The notes beneath the pieces were generated by a model. It was not told the DNA's origin and searched no databases. It saw only the letters and a list, made by a program, of their open reading frames with translations. 38,946 nucleotides of DNA from Escherichia coli (GTDB taxonomy: Bacteria; Pseudomonadota; Gammaproteobacteria; Enterobacterales; Enterobacteriaceae). Below are positions 5,410-37,294 of this stretch, one piece after another. The stretch lies in assembly GCF_003334255.1 (NCBI RefSeq), contig NZ_QOWU01000055.1. One strand, given 5' to 3'. Numbering within the stretch: position 1 is the first letter of the stretch; each line of letters starts with the position of its first letter. The position numbers and the translations under genes were made by a program.

Positions 5410-5617
<208 letters not shown>

Positions 5618-15217: not shown

Positions 15218-15315
15218 GCCTGATGCGCTACGCTTATCAGGCCTACATTTTCTCCGCAATATATTGAATTTGCGCGGTTTGTAGGCCGGATAAGGCGTTC
15301 ACGCCGCATCCGGCA
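15218..15315. repeat. BIME (two inverted REP elements) downstream of uvrB
   Basis: GCCTGATGCGCTACGCTTATCAGGCCTAC (15218-15246) and GTAGGCCGGATAAGGCGTTCACGCCGCATCCGGCA (15281-15315) with a conserved linker. Confidence 0.85.
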
Positions 15316-16529: not shown

Positions 16530-16676
16530 CACGCTAGTATCGGCATAACCACTAAACACTCTAGCCTCTGCACCTGGGTCAACTGATACGGTGCTTTGGC
16601 CGTGACAATGCTCGTAAAGATTGCCACCAGGGCGAAGGAAGAAATGACTTCGCCTCCCGTATCTGGAAAGGTGTAC
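16530..16676 (+). ncRNA. Moco riboswitch (cis-regulatory RNA) in the moaA 5' leader
   Basis: Leader ends with GAAGGAAGAAATGACTTCGCCTCCCG just before the moaA start, as expected for the molybdenum-cofactor RNA motif. The 5' boundary is approximate and no structure was computed. Confidence 0.55.
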
Positions 16677-17666
16677 ATGGCTTCACAACTGACTGATGCA
16701 TTTGCGCGTAAGTTTTACTACTTGCGCCTGTCGATTACCGATGTGTGTAACTTTCGTTGCACCTACTGCCTGCCGGATGGCTACAAACCGAGCGGCGTCA
16801 CCAATAAAGGCTTTCTTACCGTCGATGAAATTCGCCGGGTTACGCGCGCCTTCGCCAGTCTGGGCACCGAAAAAGTGCGCCTGACAGGAGGAGAGCCGTC
16901 TTTACGCCGCGACTTTACCGATATCATCGCCGCTGTGCGGGAAAACGACGCTATCCGCCAGATTGCGGTCACAACCAATGGTTACCGTCTGGAACGCGAT
17001 GTGGCGAGCTGGCGCGATGCGGGACTTACTGGCATTAACGTCAGTGTCGACAGTCTGGACGCCCGCCAGTTTCACGCTATTACCGGGCAGGATAAATTCA
17101 ACCAGGTCATGGCAGGGATTGATGCTGCATTTGAGGCCGGTTTTGAGAAGGTCAAAGTCAATACCGTGCTGATGCGTGATGTTAATCATCACCAGCTCGA
17201 CACCTTTCTGAACTGGATCCAGCATCGCCCTATCCAGCTGCGTTTCATCGAACTGATGGAAACGGGCGAGGGCAGCGAGCTCTTCCGTAAGCATCACATC
17301 TCTGGTCAGGTTCTGCGTGACGAGCTACTGCGTCGCGGCTGGATCCACCAATTACGTCAACGCAGCGACGGTCCCGCGCAAGTCTTTTGCCATCCAGATT
17401 ACGCCGGAGAGATTGGCCTTATCATGCCGTATGAAAAAGACTTCTGCGCCACTTGCAACCGCCTGCGCGTTTCCTCCATTGGTAAACTCCATCTCTGCCT
17501 GTTTGGTGAAGGCGGCGTTAACCTGCGCGATCTGCTGGAAGACGATACCCAGCAACAGGCGCTGGAAGCGCGTATTTCAGCGGCGCTGCGGGAGAAGAAA
17601 CAGACCCATTTCCTGCATCAAAACAACACCGGTATTACGCAAAACTTATCGTACATTGGCGGCTAA
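16677..17666 (+). CDS. moaA: GTP 3',8-cyclase (molybdenum cofactor biosynthesis protein A, radical SAM)
   Basis: ORF track frame 16596..17666; ATG at 16677 ([31 protein letters not shown]) giving 329 aa. Confidence 0.95.
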
Positions 17667-19516: not shown

Positions 19517-20221
19517 ATGGACAGATTCCCACGTTCTGATTCAATCGTACAACCCCGGGCTGGCTTGCAAACTTATATGGCTCAAGTCTATGGCTGGATG
19601 ACCGTTGGCTTGTTGCTGACCGCATTTGTTGCCTGGTATGCGGCTAATTCCGCGGCCGTGATGGAGCTGTTGTTCACTAACCGTGTCTTTTTAATCGGTC
19701 TGATCATCGCGCAATTAGCATTGGTTATTGTGTTATCAGCGATGATTCAAAAGCTGAGCGCAGGTGTAACGACGATGCTCTTTATGCTTTATTCGGCGCT
19801 GACGGGTCTTACGCTTTCCAGTATATTCATTGTCTATACCGCTGCTTCTATCGCCAGTACTTTCGTCGTTACTGCCGGGATGTTCGGCGCAATGAGCCTG
19901 TACGGTTACACCACGAAGCGCGATTTAAGTGGCTTTGGCAATATGCTGTTTATGGCGTTAATCGGCATTGTGCTGGCATCGCTGGTCAACTTCTGGTTGA
20001 AAAGCGAAGCATTGATGTGGGCAGTTACCTACATCGGCGTGATTGTCTTTGTCGGATTGACGGCGTATGACACGCAGAAACTGAAAAATATGGGTGAGCA
20101 GATTGATACCCGCGACACGTCGAACCTGCGCAAATATTCCATTCTTGGCGCGTTAACCTTGTATCTGGACTTCATCAACCTGTTCCTGATGTTGTTGCGG
20201 ATCTTCGGCAACCGCCGTTAA
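19517..20221 (+). CDS. ybhL: BAX-inhibitor-1 (TMBIM) family inner membrane protein
   Basis: 234-aa multi-TM ORF; family resemblance. Confidence 0.85.
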   Translation: MDRFPRSDSIVQPRAGLQTYMAQVYGWMTVGLLLTAFVAWYAANSAAVMELLFTNRVFLIGLIIAQLALVIVLSAMIQKLSAGVTTMLFMLYSALTGLTLSSIFIVYTAASIASTFVVTAGMFGAMSLYGYTTKRDLSGFGNMLFMALIGIVLASLVNFWLKSEALMWAVTYIGVIVFVGLTAYDTQKLKNMGEQIDTRDTSNLRKYSILGALTLYLDFINLFLMLLRIFGNRR

Positions 20222-20239
20222 TTCTTTTTCACCATCACT

Positions 20240-20267
20240 ATCCCGGCCATGTGTCGGGATTTTTTTC
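20240..20267 (+). terminator. Rho-independent terminator of ybhL
   Basis: Stem ATCCCG/CGGGAT with 9-nt loop followed by a T-run (20260-20266), 19 bp after the ybhL stop. Confidence 0.7.
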
Positions 20268-20425
20268 TTACTAAAAACGACACTTAACAAGTACCAGGTA
20301 TAAAATATGCCTTATGGACGAGCGGAAGCGTTTTCTGTATCCATAAATGCAAAAGTATTTTGTATGCGTGGTTTTAAATTTATTGATGGTGAATATTAAT
20401 ATTTTTTCTAAGGATAACTAAAAGA

Positions 20426-21139
20426 ATGGAATCATACTCGCAAAACAGCAATAAATTAGATTTTCAGCACGAGGCCAGGATATTAAACGGTATATGGCTC
20501 ATTACCGCTTTAGGTTTGGTGGCAACCGCAGGACTAGCCTGGGGAGCTAAGTATCTCGAAATTACGGCAACCAAATATGATTCACCACCAATGTATGTCG
20601 CCATAGGGTTATTATTACTTTGTATGTATGGCTTAAGTAAGGATATCAACAAGATAAATGCCGCCATCGCGGGCGTAATATATCTGTTTTTACTCTCTTT
20701 GGTGGCGATTGTCGTTGCAAGTTTAGTTCCTGTATATGCCATTATCATCGTGTTCAGCACTGCGGGCGCGATGTTTTTAATCAGTATGCTGGCCGGTTTA
20801 TTATTTAATGTTGATCCTGGTTCTCACCGTTTTATCATTATGATGACGTTGACAGGGTTGGCCCTGGTAATCATCGTGAATGCGGCATTAATGAGTGAAC
20901 GGCCCATTTGGGTAATAAGTTGCTTAATGATTGTGTTATGGTCAGGCATTATCTCGCATGGACGAAATAAGCTCCTTGAATTGGCGGGGAAATGCCATAG
21001 TGAAGAGTTGTGGAGTCCGGTTCGTTGCGCTTTTACAGGTGCATTAACACTCTATTACTATTTTATCGGCTTCTTTGGGATACTTGCCGCGATAGCTATA
21101 ACGCTTGTCTGGCAAAGGCATACGCGTTTTTTTCATTAG
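20426..21139 (+). CDS. ybhM: Inner membrane protein, BI-1/YccA-like paralogue of YbhL
   Basis: 237-aa multi-TM ORF; visibly AT-rich with many TTA/ATA/AAT codons compared with its neighbours. Confidence 0.8.
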   Translation: MESYSQNSNKLDFQHEARILNGIWLITALGLVATAGLAWGAKYLEITATKYDSPPMYVAIGLLLLCMYGLSKDINKINAAIAGVIYLFLLSLVAIVVASLVPVYAIIIVFSTAGAMFLISMLAGLLFNVDPGSHRFIIMMTLTGLALVIIVNAALMSERPIWVISCLMIVLWSGIISHGRNKLLELAGKCHSEELWSPVRCAFTGALTLYYYFIGFFGILAAIAITLVWQRHTRFFH

Positions 21140-21174
21140 CCGTAAATGCACATACTAAAGAACTTAACTAAACT

Positions 21175-22131
21175 TCACATCGCCGCTTCATTTTTCGCCC
21201 GTAGCTTCTTCGCCTGGCTTTCCAGCAACAGGTAACAGATCAGCGCCAGCAGCAGTGGGATAAAGTAATACAGCACACGGTAAGCGAGTAGGGCGGCGAT
21301 AATTGTACCTTTGGAGGTATGCTCCCCAGCCAGTAGTGCGATAAACACCGCTTCCAGCACACCGATCCCCGCCGGAATATGCACGATGACGCCAGCAATA
21401 CTACTAACCAGTAACACGCCCAGTACAAAGAAATAGTTCACGCTTTGACCAAGTAACAGCCAGATAATCGCCCCCATTACCATCCAGTTAACGCTGGAAA
21501 TCAGCATCTGAGCGAGGGCGAATTTCCATGAAGGCAGCACCAGCTTTTGCCCTTTGATGGTCATATGGCGGTGCTTCGCGAAAGCGCAAAACCACAAATA
21601 AACCGCGATAATCATCAGTAAGCCAATGCCGAGAATACGCAGCGTAGTTTGATCGACATACCAGTGATCCGGCAACTCCACCACGCCTGCGGTAAAGATA
21701 ATCCCTGCCAGTAAAATGTAGCCCAGCCAGTTGGTGGTAATACTGAGCGAGAAAATCCGCGTAATAGTGCTACCGGGCAACCCCAGACGAGAGTACAAAC
21801 GATAGCGCATACCAATGCCGCCGACCCAGGTACTGAGCGTCAGGTTGAAGGCGTAGCAGATAAACGACACCAGCATCACCTGGCGCTTCGCCAGTTTGTG
21901 ACCGCAGTAAAAGCGGGCGAGCAGGTCATAGCAGCCGTAAATCAGATAGCTGACGACCACCAGCCCGACCGCACTAAGCAGCGCAACGCGATTGTAGTCG
22001 CGGATGACCTTCCAGACCTCTTCCCAGTCCACTTTTTTGGCGTAGACCACCAGCAACACAATCACCGCGATAAAAAACAGCCAGGTGAGGATCTTCTTTG
22101 CTAAGCGCCAGCGCGGGTGTGATTTACTCAT
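21175..22131 (-). CDS. ybhN: Inner membrane protein, MprF-flippase-like (UPF0104/LPG-synthase TM) family
   Basis: 318-aa multi-TM ORF; start overlaps the clsB stop (TGATG). Confidence 0.8.
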   Translation of the reverse strand: MSKSHPRWRLAKKILTWLFFIAVIVLLVVYAKKVDWEEVWKVIRDYNRVALLSAVGLVVVSYLIYGCYDLLARFYCGHKLAKRQVMLVSFICYAFNLTLSTWVGGIGMRYRLYSRLGLPGSTITRIFSLSITTNWLGYILLAGIIFTAGVVELPDHWYVDQTTLRILGIGLLMIIAVYLWFCAFAKHRHMTIKGQKLVLPSWKFALAQMLISSVNWMVMGAIIWLLLGQSVNYFFVLGVLLVSSIAGVIVHIPAGIGVLEAVFIALLAGEHTSKGTIIAALLAYRVLYYFIPLLLALICYLLLESQAKKLRAKNEAAM

Positions 22132-23372
22132 CAGGGTTTTACCCCCGTGTTTTCAGTTTCTACCCGATCCTGCGTTTCCATTGTCGGTTGTGCGGGCGGA
22201 TCAACCTGCGCCAGACGTGGCGTGTGTGCCGGAAGCCAGCCAACCAGCGCCGGGAAGTGGCGTAAAAAGTGGAACGCCAGTACGCTTTTGGTCAGGTTCC
22301 ACCAGGTGCGTTTGGGCAGCATGGTTTCATCCACCTGCTGACAATCTGCGGCAATAATGCCGTTCAGATTATCGCGCAGCGTCTGGTTAAAATGACGATC
22401 GTGGATGATGACATTTGCTTCGAGATTCAGTGACAAACTGAGCGGATCGAGATTACTGGACCCTACTGTCGCCCAGTGATCGTCCATCAATGCCACTTTG
22501 CCGTGGAGCGGGCGGCGGCGGTACTCAAAAACCTGAACGCCGCCTTTAACCAGATAGTTATACAGCAAGCGCGCACCGACTCTGACAATCGGCATATCCG
22601 GTTCGCCCTGAATGATCAGTTTGATCCGCACCCCGCGCCGTGCCGCTTTACGCAAGGCGTGTAAAAATCGATAGCCGGGGAAGAAGTAGGCGTTGGCGAT
22701 AATCACTTCCCGCCGCGCCTGAGTGAGCATTTTCAAATAATGGCGTTCAATATCATCGCGATGTTCTTCGTTATCGCGCCAGACCAGCAATACCTGCGCT
22801 TCTCCCGGCTGGCGGTTCTCTTCCGCTTTGTGATGACGTCGCCACCAGCGTCGTGCCGCGCTCTGTCCAGGCAGGTTTTCCAGCTCAAACTGGAGAATAT
22901 CTTCGACAATCGGCCCTTCAAGGCGTACCGCGTAATCCTGTTTAGCCTCTGGACCGTAGCTGGACATATGCTCGGCGGAGTAATTCAGCCCGCCAATAAA
23001 GGCTATACGCGCGTCGATCACCACAATTTTGCGATGCATCCGGCGAAACACATTGGTGCGCATACCAAAAAGGCGAGGGCGGGGATCGTAGTAGCGGAAC
23101 ACTACGCCAGCTGCCGTCAGTTCATTGACAAACTCATCGCTGAGATCCGGCGAACCGTAGCCATCCAGCAAGACTTCCGCTTTAACCCCGCGTTGCGCTG
23201 CTGCCAGTAGTGCCGCATGCAGTTGTTTGCCGACGTCATCCTCAAACCAGATAAACGTTTCAAGAATGATGCGTTCTTGTGCCTCGCCAATCGCCTTAAA
23301 CACCGCGGGATAATATTGCTCGCCGTTTTCCAGCAACTGGATCTTATTGCCTTCGCGCCAGCTACATTTCAT
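22131..23372 (-). CDS. clsB: Cardiolipin synthase B (phospholipase-D superfamily, two HKD motifs)
   Basis: 413-aa ORF with HRKIVVID and [12 protein letters not shown] motifs. Confidence 0.9.
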
Positions 23373-24130
23373 AAATGAATCTCCGCACTTAAAGGGGCAT
23401 GATCAGAAAGGTGTCGCCATGTCCGCAGCGGCAACGCGGTTGGCGCGCTGGCGCTGGCATTTTTGACGTAGATCCTGTCCAGTCGTAGTAGAGGAAATTG
23501 CACCGGAAACGTGCGCGCCGGGCGTCCGTGGGCGCGGGTAAAAATCTCATCCAGTCCGGCCTGCACTTTTAACGGATGATTAGCTTTTTGCCGCCAGTCA
23601 TTGAAATCACCCGCCACCAATACCGGTTCGCCGTCCGGTAGCTCATTCACCCATTCGGCGAGCATCGCAAGCTGCGCCTGACGGTGCGCCTCACGCAGGC
23701 CCAGATGTACGCACATCACATGAATCGCTTTTCCGGTCATCGGCGGCACAATGCGGCAGTAGAGCACGCCGCGCTTTTCCGCACCATCGACCGAAACATC
23801 GCGATTCTCATAATGTTCAATGGGATAACGCGACAGTACGGCGTTGCCGTGATGCCCTTCCGGGTATACGGCATTGCGACCGTAGGCAAAATCGCTCCAC
23901 ATAGTGTCGGCGAGAAACTCGTAGTGCGAGGTATCGGGCCAGTTTTCCACATGCAGCGGATGAACTTCGTGCGCGCCCATCACTTCCTGCAGGCAAACAA
24001 TATCGGCGCTGACGGTACGCACGGCGTCGCGAAGTTCCGGCAAAATGAAGCGTCGGTTAAACGCGGTAAAGCCTTTGTGAATATTGATGGTGAGCACCTT
24101 GAACGAAAATTGTTGTGTTTGATCGGGCAT
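23369..24130 (-). CDS. ybhP: Endonuclease/exonuclease/phosphatase (EEP) family protein
   Basis: 253-aa ORF; 4-bp ATGA overlap with the clsB start; first gene of the ybhP-clsB-ybhN operon. Confidence 0.85.
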
Positions 24131-24196
24131 AATTTTCCTGTCTTTGCCTCTTATCTCATTGAAATAGTGTAGTCGGCGTCACAAAAAGGTGCGGTC

Positions 24197-24214
24197 TTAC
24201 GGAATTTTCCGTAA
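24197..24214. promoter_or_regulatory. Inverted repeat TTACGGAA-tt-TTCCGTAA in the ybhP/ybhQ divergent promoter region (operator candidate)
   Basis: Perfect 8-bp arms with 2-bp spacer read directly; lies between the ybhP start (24130) and ybhQ start (24263). Confidence 0.4.
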
Positions 24215-24262: not shown

Positions 24263-24673
24263 ATGAAGTGGCAACAACGTGTTCGTGTCGCAACGGGTCT
24301 AAGTTGCTGGCAGATTATGTTGCATTTACTGGTAGTGGCGCTGCTGGTGGTGGGCTGGATGAGTAAGACTCTGGTTCACGTCGGCGTGGGATTATGCGCA
24401 CTGTATTGTGTCACGGTAGTGATGATGCTGGTGTTTCAGCGCCACCCCGAGCAACGCTGGCGTGAGGTGGCAGACGTGCTGGAAGAGCTGACCACGACCT
24501 GGTATTTTGGCGCAGCGCTGATTGTGCTGTGGCTGTTGTCCCGCGTTCTGGAAAACAACTTTTTGCTGGCAATTGCAGGGCTGGCAATCCTTGCCGGCCC
24601 GGCGGTAGTGTCTTTGCTGGCGAAAGATAAGAAGTTACATCACCTTACGTCTAAACATCGCGTACGCCGCTGA
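24263..24673 (+). CDS. ybhQ: Small inner membrane protein
   Basis: 136-aa ORF with predicted TM helices; its 3' end overlaps the convergent ybhR by 39 bp. Confidence 0.8.
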
Positions 24674-31921: not shown

Positions 31922-32020
<99 letters not shown>

Positions 32021-37165: not shown

Positions 37166-37294
37166 ACTTGTGCTGGACGTAGCGTAAACGCCTGATCCGT
37201 CCAACGGTTCGGATTTTGTAGGCCTGATAAGACGCGGTAGCGTCGCATCAGGCATCTGTTGCCGGATGCGGCGTAAACGCCTTATCCGTCCTAC
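37166..37294. repeat. REP/BIME cluster downstream of ybiJ
   Basis: GTAGGCCTGATAAGACGCGGTAGCGTCGCATCAGGC (37218-37253) and GCCGGATGCGGCGTAAACGCCTTATCCGTCCTAC (37261-37294), plus a partial REP-like segment upstream. Confidence 0.8.

Follow-up and report, generated by a model that had tools for sequence, protein, structure and literature searches.

The ybhP-clsB-ybhN operon of Escherichia coli: conserved synteny and a possible stress-induced lipid module

We analysed a 38,946-nt stretch of Escherichia coli DNA (contig NZ_QOWU01000055.1 of assembly GCF_003334255.1; hereafter the window) that carries ybhP, clsB and ybhN, three back-to-back open reading frames (ORFs) on the minus strand. According to the list of ORFs and the raw sequence, they fill positions 21175-24130. 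ybhP (24130..23369, 253 amino acids, ATG to TGA) encodes a predicted cytoplasmic, metal-dependent phosphoesterase of the endonuclease/exonuclease/phosphatase (EEP) family. clsB (23372..22131, 413 amino acids; RefSeq WP_000650337.1) encodes cardiolipin synthase B, a phosphatidyl transferase of the phospholipase D (PLD) superfamily. ybhN (22131..21175, 318 amino acids), also named pplT, encodes a polytopic inner-membrane protein that corresponds to the first transmembrane domain (TMD1) of MprF. A preliminary description had delimited and named the genes in this way; its coordinates agree exactly with the ORF listing, and profile matches and motifs bear out its identification of an EEP protein, ClsB and an MprF-flippase-like protein. 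RefSeq annotates the same three genes with identical boundaries, flanked by the convergent ybhM and the divergent ybhQ. The region is core-genome E. coli DNA: by megablast, its 3.6 kb are 100% identical to E. coli chromosomes, and 5424 of 5426 complete genomes contain a match, in each case at 95-100% identity. The published ybhP-clsB(ybhO)-ybhN operon of E. coli and Salmonella is the same locus, with the same genes, boundaries and order (PMC9241728; bioRxiv 10.1101/2022.03.11.483950; PMC10100675).

The genes overlap at both junctions. The ybhP stop and the clsB start share ATGA at 23369..23372 (4 nt; GGAGATTCATTT-ATGA on the coding strand), and the clsB stop and the ybhN start share a single nucleotide, 22131, within TGATG at 22129..22133 (GGGGGTAAAACCC-TGATG). 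Both motifs had been pointed out before and stand in the raw sequence; with one strand, start/stop overlaps and zero intergenic space, the three genes have the layout of a translationally coupled operon. A putative Shine-Dalgarno element, GGAG (23381..23384, minus strand), lies 8 nt upstream of the clsB ATG within the last ybhP codons, and related loci keep its GAG before the clsB start (GAGATxCAxxTATGA). A second such candidate, AGGA (24136..24139, minus strand), lies 5 nt upstream of the ybhP ATG, and its GGAG/GGA is conserved in Enterobacteriaceae. Overlaps of 4 and 1 nt are ordinary in bacterial operons and recur in neighbouring operons of the window (moaC/moaD, ybhG(hlyD)/ybhF and ybhF/ybhS in the same annotated region), so we rejected the idea that they are unusual in themselves. 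To judge from the comparison of loci below, it is the conservation of the overlaps, not their presence, that exceeds chance. A consensus scan found terminator-like sites inside the three genes at chance level (6 versus 4.3±2.3 expected), the 35-bp convergent gap between ybhN and ybhM (21140-21174) holds no recognisable hairpin terminator, and an Rfam search of 21175-24130 returned no RNA family.

ClsB is a PLD-type transphosphatidylase with two HKD motifs and no transmembrane (TM) helix, and its activity is documented for the same or orthologous proteins. It scores 751.2 bits against the NCBIfam equivalog NF008427 (cut-off 281), with residues 1-408 aligned to profile positions 1-408 of 409, and profile searches place two PLDc_2 domains in it. 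A search for HxKxxxxD located the HKD motifs at H113-R-K-I-V-V-I-D120 (23013..23036, minus strand; PLDc PF00614 matches residues 109-132) and at H290-G-K-V-A-L-M-D297 (22482..22505, minus strand); H290A is the catalytically inert allele of Salmonella ClsB (PMC9241728). No 19-residue window reaches a Kyte-Doolittle mean of 1.6, in line with the published statement that E. coli ClsB has no TM domain (PMC12846801), and the lack of N-terminal TM helices separates it from ClsA. A hydrophobic-moment scan did not single out its aromatic-rich C-terminal segment (about residues 354-379) as an amphipathic helix, and a sequence search of the Protein Data Bank (PDB) with ClsB gave no matches.

The products of ClsB are in print. 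They include cardiolipin from two molecules of phosphatidylglycerol (PG), PG from phosphatidylethanolamine (PE) and glycerol, and phosphatidyl-alcohols (PMC8027125, PMC9241728). The enzyme has been called promiscuous, and it yields 6-phosphatidyl- and 6,6'-diphosphatidyl-trehalose (PT and diPT) in Salmonella and some E. coli strains; clsB is essential for these trehalose phospholipids and dispensable for cardiolipin (PMC6446866). Plasmid-borne ybhP-clsB-ybhN (the 'clsB operon') restores and over-produces cardiolipin in ΔclsABC Salmonella (PMC9241728). How the ClsB active site is oriented, and what purpose three cardiolipin synthases serve, are questions that a review leaves open (PMC8027125). 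The preliminary description had called the substrate and the roles of the flanking genes unresolved; that holds for the YbhP substrate and the YbhN transport step, and not for ClsB.

By its sequence, YbhN is a stand-alone MprF TM1-8 'flippase' domain (PplT family) and not an MprF. It matches Pfam PF03706 (LPG_synthase_TM) at 4.6e-15 and has about eight hydrophobic segments. With phmmer (E about 3e-22) it aligns to residues 40-342 of the Pseudomonas aeruginosa MprF (PaMprF; 9goe) and to residues 46-320 of the R. tropici MprF (6lvf), that is, to TM1-8. Against the NCBIfam model bifunc_MprF (NF033480) it reaches 164 bits where the cut-off is 600, and the match is confined to profile positions 3-301 of 841. 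Only 318 residues long, the protein has neither the TMD2 (TM9-14) nor the aminoacyl-PG synthase domain that MprF possesses (9goe, 6lvf, 7f47). The residues that distinguish TMD1 are retained. E260, within H251-IPAGIGVLEAV-262 (21346..21381, minus strand), aligns with PaMprF E295, and Y284, R285, Y288 and P292 align with Y318, R319, Y322 and P326; the E-R salt bridge, both tyrosines and the TM8 proline are thus all present in YbhN. In PaMprF, E295-R319 is a conserved salt bridge, and the roles of Y318, Y322 and P326 have been described (PMC11980842).

YbhN and MprF share the logic of a head-group-modifying enzyme coupled to a TM domain. They differ in the enzyme, which in MprF is a tRNA-dependent transferase and here would be ClsB, a separate PLD-type protein; E. 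coli does not make aminoacyl-PG (bioRxiv 10.1101/2022.03.11.483950). The same study renamed YbhN PplT, pointed to an operon that it shares with ybhP and clsB in Enterobacteriaceae, and reported two-hybrid contacts of YbhN with ClsB and with PgpA/B/C. Phospholipid translocation by YbhN was proposed there in 2022 and again in 2025 (PMC11980842). Among the publications consulted, none demonstrates lipid translocation by YbhN; the in vitro demonstration is limited to full-length PaMprF, a passive, promiscuous scramblase (PMC11980842).

YbhP is very probably catalytically active, given how its sequence is conserved. It matches Pfam PF03372 (Exo_endo_phos) at 3e-23, with residues 14-244 aligned to model positions 2-225 of 225, a full-length profile match. 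An AlphaFold model built on an alignment of 111 homologues shows the four-layer alpha/beta sandwich of the EEP fold with high confidence (predicted local distance difference test, pLDDT, 96.9; predicted template modelling score, pTM, 0.93); it replaced a poor single-sequence model (pLDDT 55), which we discarded. N16, E49, D175, N177, D178, D218, D243 and H244 are invariant or at least 90% conserved among the 111 homologues, which reach down to about 35% identity. These residues presumably have the catalytic and metal-binding roles of their EEP counterparts. A Kyte-Doolittle scan found no hydrophobic segment in YbhP.

The YbhP fold points to no particular substrate. The top matches of a fold search are uncharacterised EEPs from structural genomics (4ruw, 3g6s, 3l1w, 3mpr), followed at nearly equal scores by TDP2, human neutral sphingomyelinase 2, nocturnin, CNOT6L, PDE12, sphingomyelinase C (SMase C) and ExoIII. 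Lipid-directed and nucleic-acid- or nucleotide-directed EEPs score alike, and the search does not disclose the substrate class: YbhP is no closer to the lipid-directed EEPs (neutral sphingomyelinases and SMase C, inositol polyphosphate 5-phosphatases) than to TDP2, nocturnin, CNOT6L and ExoIII. A PDB sequence search with YbhP gave marginal matches only (ExoIII, E 0.006). Among the publications consulted that mention ybhP, none assigns YbhP a function or a substrate; one lists it as 'Predicted DNase' (PMC2907692).

The 132-bp intergenic region between the divergent ybhP and ybhQ is highly conserved in Enterobacteriaceae and holds two candidate regulatory elements. CTACACT (24166..24172, minus strand), 35 nt upstream of the ybhP ATG, is conserved in 10 of 11 aligned Enterobacterales upstream regions. 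We take it to resemble the sigma-S -10 consensus. A perfect 8-bp inverted repeat, TTACGGAA-AA-TTCCGTAA (24197..24214), is present exactly or with at most one substitution in 10 of the 11 regions and is a candidate operator. We do not claim it as an RcsB box, as only the core RGA-N4-TCY matches; a scan of the whole window for the strict box TNRGAN4TCYNA (PMC7913699) gave no exact match. A plain sigma-70 scan found no promoter in the intergenic region.

Published expression data connect the operon to stress. RpoS dependence is 251-fold for ybhP and 7-fold for ybhO (clsB) (PMC2907692), and CTACACT, as a candidate -10 element of the operon promoter, would agree with it. Under LolCDE inhibition, RNA sequencing gave two induction values per gene, 17.6- and 33-fold for ybhP, 12.3- and 24.5-fold for clsB and 4.4- and 9.1-fold for ybhN, a gradient that falls along the operon, and genes of the Rcs and sigma-S regulons rise alongside it (PMC5105897). 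The operon has been linked to ppGpp (PMC10100675), clsB rises about 9-fold in late stationary phase (PMC12846801), and a published sigma-E chromatin immunoprecipitation peak lies between ybhP and ybhQ in Salmonella. The obligate co-expression that the overlaps had earlier been taken to imply is overstated: overlaps do not imply it, published induction is graded, and RpoS dependence is very unequal.

The gene order is conserved well beyond E. coli. The first 120 YbhP homologues, found through a word index, were all from Enterobacterales and uninformative for deep synteny, and an exhaustive search of representatives was used instead: a YbhP profile scan of one genome per GTDB species, from which we retained the best 80 loci (54-89% identity). 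YbhP, ClsB and YbhN follow one another on one strand in 60 of these loci, which belong to Gamma- and Betaproteobacteria; at another two, a contig end interrupts the locus. The triad occurs in Enterobacterales, in many Pseudomonas, in the Burkholderiales genera Variovorax, Acidovorax, Ramlibacter, Mitsuaria, Polaromonas and Xenophilus, and in Billgrantia, Cellvibrio and Luteimonas. An NTGA overlap of 4 nt joins YbhP and ClsB in about 34 of the 62 loci that keep the pair (Enterobacterales, Pseudomonadales and Burkholderiales); ClsB and YbhN overlap by 1 or 4 nt in about 29 of 60 loci and by more in about 9 others. Start codons at related loci were assigned heuristically, and these overlap counts are approximate.

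Variants of the arrangement were also seen. In a metagenome-assembled genome (MAG) of Xanthomonadaceae, homologues of YbhP and YbhN are immediate neighbours in that order, and neither the junction nor the surrounding 6 kb holds a ClsB gene (L071 5995-7789). In a Cellvibrio MAG the ClsB-YbhN pair is tandemly duplicated downstream of a single YbhP gene (L057 6747-11296), and a Ramlibacter MAG has two tandem YbhN copies (L055 8105-9987). Many Pseudomonas genomes carry a second YbhP paralogue (about 59% identity) that has neither Cls nor YbhN in its vicinity (L059 and about a dozen similar loci, among them L053, L058, L061-L064, L066, L068 and L070); at one of these loci (L059 4096-8165) it stands beside a glycosyltransferase-like gene, a PIG-L/BshB1-like deacetylase gene and an autotransporter barrel.

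More distant EEP homologues are associated with PLD genes as well. For homologues of 36-41% identity on low-GC metagenome contigs, about 7 contexts were informative, and in 4 of them the EEP gene has a two-HKD PLD gene as its neighbour. At one locus (L083 2947-5753; L084 is alike), an inositol-monophosphatase-family gene, a PLD/Cls gene and a YbhP-like EEP gene form an apparent operon, which hints at a polyol or sugar-phosphate acceptor pathway. Another has the order EEP, PLD (L088), and in a third a VTT/DedA gene precedes the EEP gene, with the PLD gene convergent (L086). In a fourth, EEP and PLD are fused in one protein (P0220; L002 3180-5126). Such fusions occur in at least five metagenome protein clusters (P0220; P0271, L094 5001-6938; P0272; P0274; P0284, L095 5001-6419), at 25-42% identity to the query P0220, and with five clusters they are real and not an artefact. 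Their domain order, EEP followed by a two-HKD PLD/Cls domain, is the gene order of E. coli.

Two further features of these distant loci concern the membrane partner and the substrate. A DedA/VTT gene takes the place of YbhN as the neighbouring membrane-protein gene at two loci (L086 4411-5004; L002 5136-7268, minus strand), and in Verticiella the full triad is preceded by a VTT-like ORF (L079 5380-5820). To judge from these two or three loci, the scramblase module may be exchangeable, with DedA/VTT as a non-orthologous substitute for the translocator; the PaMprF study remarks that the transport domains of DedA and MprF seem to be interchangeable (PMC11980842). The likeness is anecdotal, and it has limits: DedA/VTT proteins differ from YbhN in fold family, and no DedA gene belongs to the E. 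coli operon. One EEP relative (P0276, 413 residues) carries a NUDIX domain in the same polypeptide, and the P0284 fusion has a NUDIX gene directly upstream of it (L095 4561-4917), a possible hint that some members of this EEP clade act on a nucleotide-linked substrate.

The conserved triad and the fusions support functional coupling, as far as sequence comparison reaches, and not a mechanism. The earlier suggestion that the three genes serve one lipid pathway thus gains comparative support in its first part; its second, that the pathway makes and translocates a modified phospholipid, is a reasonable proposal that was already in print. We give about an even chance to a reading in which ybhP-clsB-ybhN is a stress-induced core operon, transcribed from a stress-responsive promoter in the ybhP/ybhQ intergenic region (RpoS, ppGpp, stationary phase, envelope stress), whose products form one lipid module on the cytoplasmic face of the inner membrane. 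ClsB would shift the phosphatidyl group of PG or PE to an alcohol acceptor, an energy-neutral and reversible head-group exchange at the cytoplasmic leaflet. YbhN would bring ClsB to the membrane and, scramblase-like as in P. aeruginosa MprF, equilibrate the product to the periplasmic leaflet, which would also pull the ClsB reaction forward. YbhP, presumably made in fixed proportion to ClsB through the conserved 4-nt overlap, would hydrolyse a phosphoester that takes part in this reaction; a phosphate carried by the acceptor or by the phosphatidyl-X product is the most plausible candidate. Such a step would render the exchange irreversible, in the way that Pgp phosphatases act downstream of PgsA. 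Otherwise YbhP might trim off-pathway products. The YbhP step is speculative and the weakest part of this scheme: by analogy with ymdB-clsC, the data would fit product turnover or stabilisation of ClsB by YbhP equally well.

Several observations weigh against this lipid module. Eighteen of the 80 loci have a YbhP homologue with no Cls or YbhN within 6 kb; about a dozen of these are second copies in triad-bearing Pseudomonas genomes, or their likely orthologues. Some of the more distant homologues have no Cls within 5 kb. The close structural neighbours of YbhP in the AlphaFold Database are all unnamed or uncharacterised. Deletion of pplT in E. coli CFT073 left the lipid pattern on thin-layer chromatography unchanged and caused a mild growth defect (bioRxiv 10.1101/2022.03.11.483950). 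The proposed scrambling groove of PaMprF lies between TMD1 and TMD2, with TMD2 as its other wall (PMC11980842); because YbhN lacks TMD2, and with it half of that groove, it may be unable to scramble lipids alone. Finally, clsB expressed alone from pBAD restored trehalose lipids in a Salmonella clsB mutant (PMC6446866), which means that over-expressed ClsB needs no stoichiometric partner; chromosomal ybhP was still present in that strain.

YbhN may act mainly as a membrane anchor or scaffold that holds the helix-less ClsB, and perhaps YbhP, near lipid substrates and the Pgp phosphatases, without translocating anything, a possibility we consider doubtful. Neither ClsB nor YbhP has a hydrophobic segment of its own, the two-hybrid contacts of YbhN are with ClsB and PgpA/B/C, and the lipid pattern of the ΔpplT strain is unchanged (bioRxiv 10.1101/2022.03.11.483950), all of which suit an anchor. 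So does the reduction of YbhN to TMD1, since the PaMprF groove lies between its two TM domains; moreover, PaMprF transported no less when conserved residues of TMD1 were mutated, and the authors of that work ascribe a structural role to them (PMC11980842). Yet the MprF literature, as far as it is relayed in bioRxiv 10.1101/2022.03.11.483950, assigns the flippase function to the N-terminal domain, the replacement of YbhN by a DedA/VTT protein of a scramblase-type family at two distant loci fits transport better than scaffolding, and other TM-less Cls enzymes such as ClsC function without a partner of this kind.

Another reading, which we judge quite unlikely, is that the operon simply supplies a back-up cardiolipin synthase for stationary phase. 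YbhP and YbhN would then be accessories or unrelated passengers that influence neither which lipid is made nor where it ends up, and YbhP would cleave phosphodiesters in nucleic acids or nucleotides, in line with older annotations. This reading would accommodate the restored and over-produced cardiolipin of ΔclsABC Salmonella carrying the plasmid-borne operon (PMC9241728), the rise of clsB in stationary phase (PMC12846801, PMC8027125), a YbhP fold as near to TDP2, ExoIII and CNOT6L as to sphingomyelinases, the 'Predicted DNase' label (PMC2907692), the YbhP paralogues without Cls, and the NUDIX domain of P0276 and NUDIX gene beside P0284. Two lines of evidence argue otherwise: ΔclsB hardly alters cardiolipin and abolishes trehalose phospholipids (PMC6446866), and a triad with its 4-nt overlap conserved across bacterial orders, together with EEP-PLD fusions in at least five clusters, is not what an unrelated passenger gene would leave. 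Less probable still is a YbhP that has no metabolite of the pathway as its substrate and serves to make ClsB more abundant or more stable. The parallel is that ymdB-carrying clones give more ClsC by a mechanism that is unexplained (PMC8027125); the gene order is the same, a soluble hydrolase gene directly upstream of cls with a tight overlap, and the fusions mean physical proximity of EEP and PLD. Against it stands the full EEP catalytic set, whose conservation of 90% or more in 111 sequences, the most distant at 35% identity, would imply selection for catalysis and not only for a chaperone-like role.

The ymdB-clsC pair is, like MprF, a known system close to this one. In ymdB-clsC as in ybhP-clsB, a stationary-phase Cls without TM helices is encoded directly downstream of a soluble hydrolase gene, and in ymdB-clsC the partner lifts ClsC output (PMC8027125). 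The pairs differ in that the ymdB product is a macrodomain protein whereas YbhP is an EEP, in that ymdB-clsC has no translocator-like third gene, and in that ClsC uses PE together with PG.

A broader generalisation of the lipid module, which we consider unlikely, would make YbhP-type EEPs the dedicated catalytic partners of TM-less, ClsB-type PLD transferases, next to which they lie across Proteobacteria and to which they are fused in several lineages, with an interchangeable scramblase, YbhN or DedA. Such a three-component pathway, so far unrecognised, would produce stress-specific phosphatidyl-X lipids (phosphatidyl-trehaloses, for example), committed by phosphoester hydrolysis and displayed on the outer leaflet. 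The strain dependence of diPT production, for which Reinink et al. invoked 'as-yet-unknown additional requirements' (PMC6446866), would then come down to YbhP and YbhN.

The surroundings of the operon hold several other features. Upstream in the window lie ybhL and ybhM (19517-21139), adjacent paralogues of the Bax-inhibitor-1/YccA family, of which ybhM converges on ybhN. An IS1 copy near the operon in strain F829 was considered as a disruption of the operon and rejected, since it interrupts ybhM instead. On the other side, ybhQ (plus strand, ending at 24673) and ybhR (minus strand, ending at 24635) converge, and their 3' ends overlap by 39 nt (24635-24673). Rfam places a Moco riboswitch upstream of moaA (16545-16689) and two members each of two repeat-derived small RNA families, naRNA4 (CssrE; 5492-5562 and 37221-37291) and ES036 (CssrF; 15239-15280 and 31943-31985).

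Because the operon, its regulation and the hypothesis about it are all in print, as are the ClsB products, the proposed flippase role of YbhN and its contact with ClsB, the locus itself adds no new biology. The additions made here are comparative only: the breadth of synteny, the EEP-PLD fusions, the DedA neighbours in distant loci and the conserved upstream elements. The gene overlaps bear on how mutants of the locus are read: because of them, deletion-insertion alleles of clsB are likely to be polar on ybhN, or to uncouple it, which calls for caution with published ΔclsB phenotypes.

What remains of interest is YbhP, a wholly uncharacterised family that is yet tightly and anciently linked to ClsB-type enzymes, a link that makes the question of what ClsB produces, and where, directly testable. 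ClsB-dependent trehalose phospholipids are Mincle agonists of typhoidal Salmonella and some E. coli strains. If YbhP and YbhN set the ClsB product or its leaflet, this would explain strain-specific production of an immunostimulatory lipid. Stand-alone translocator domains of the MprF type, which occur throughout Bacteria and Archaea, would in that case also gain their first physiological substrate.

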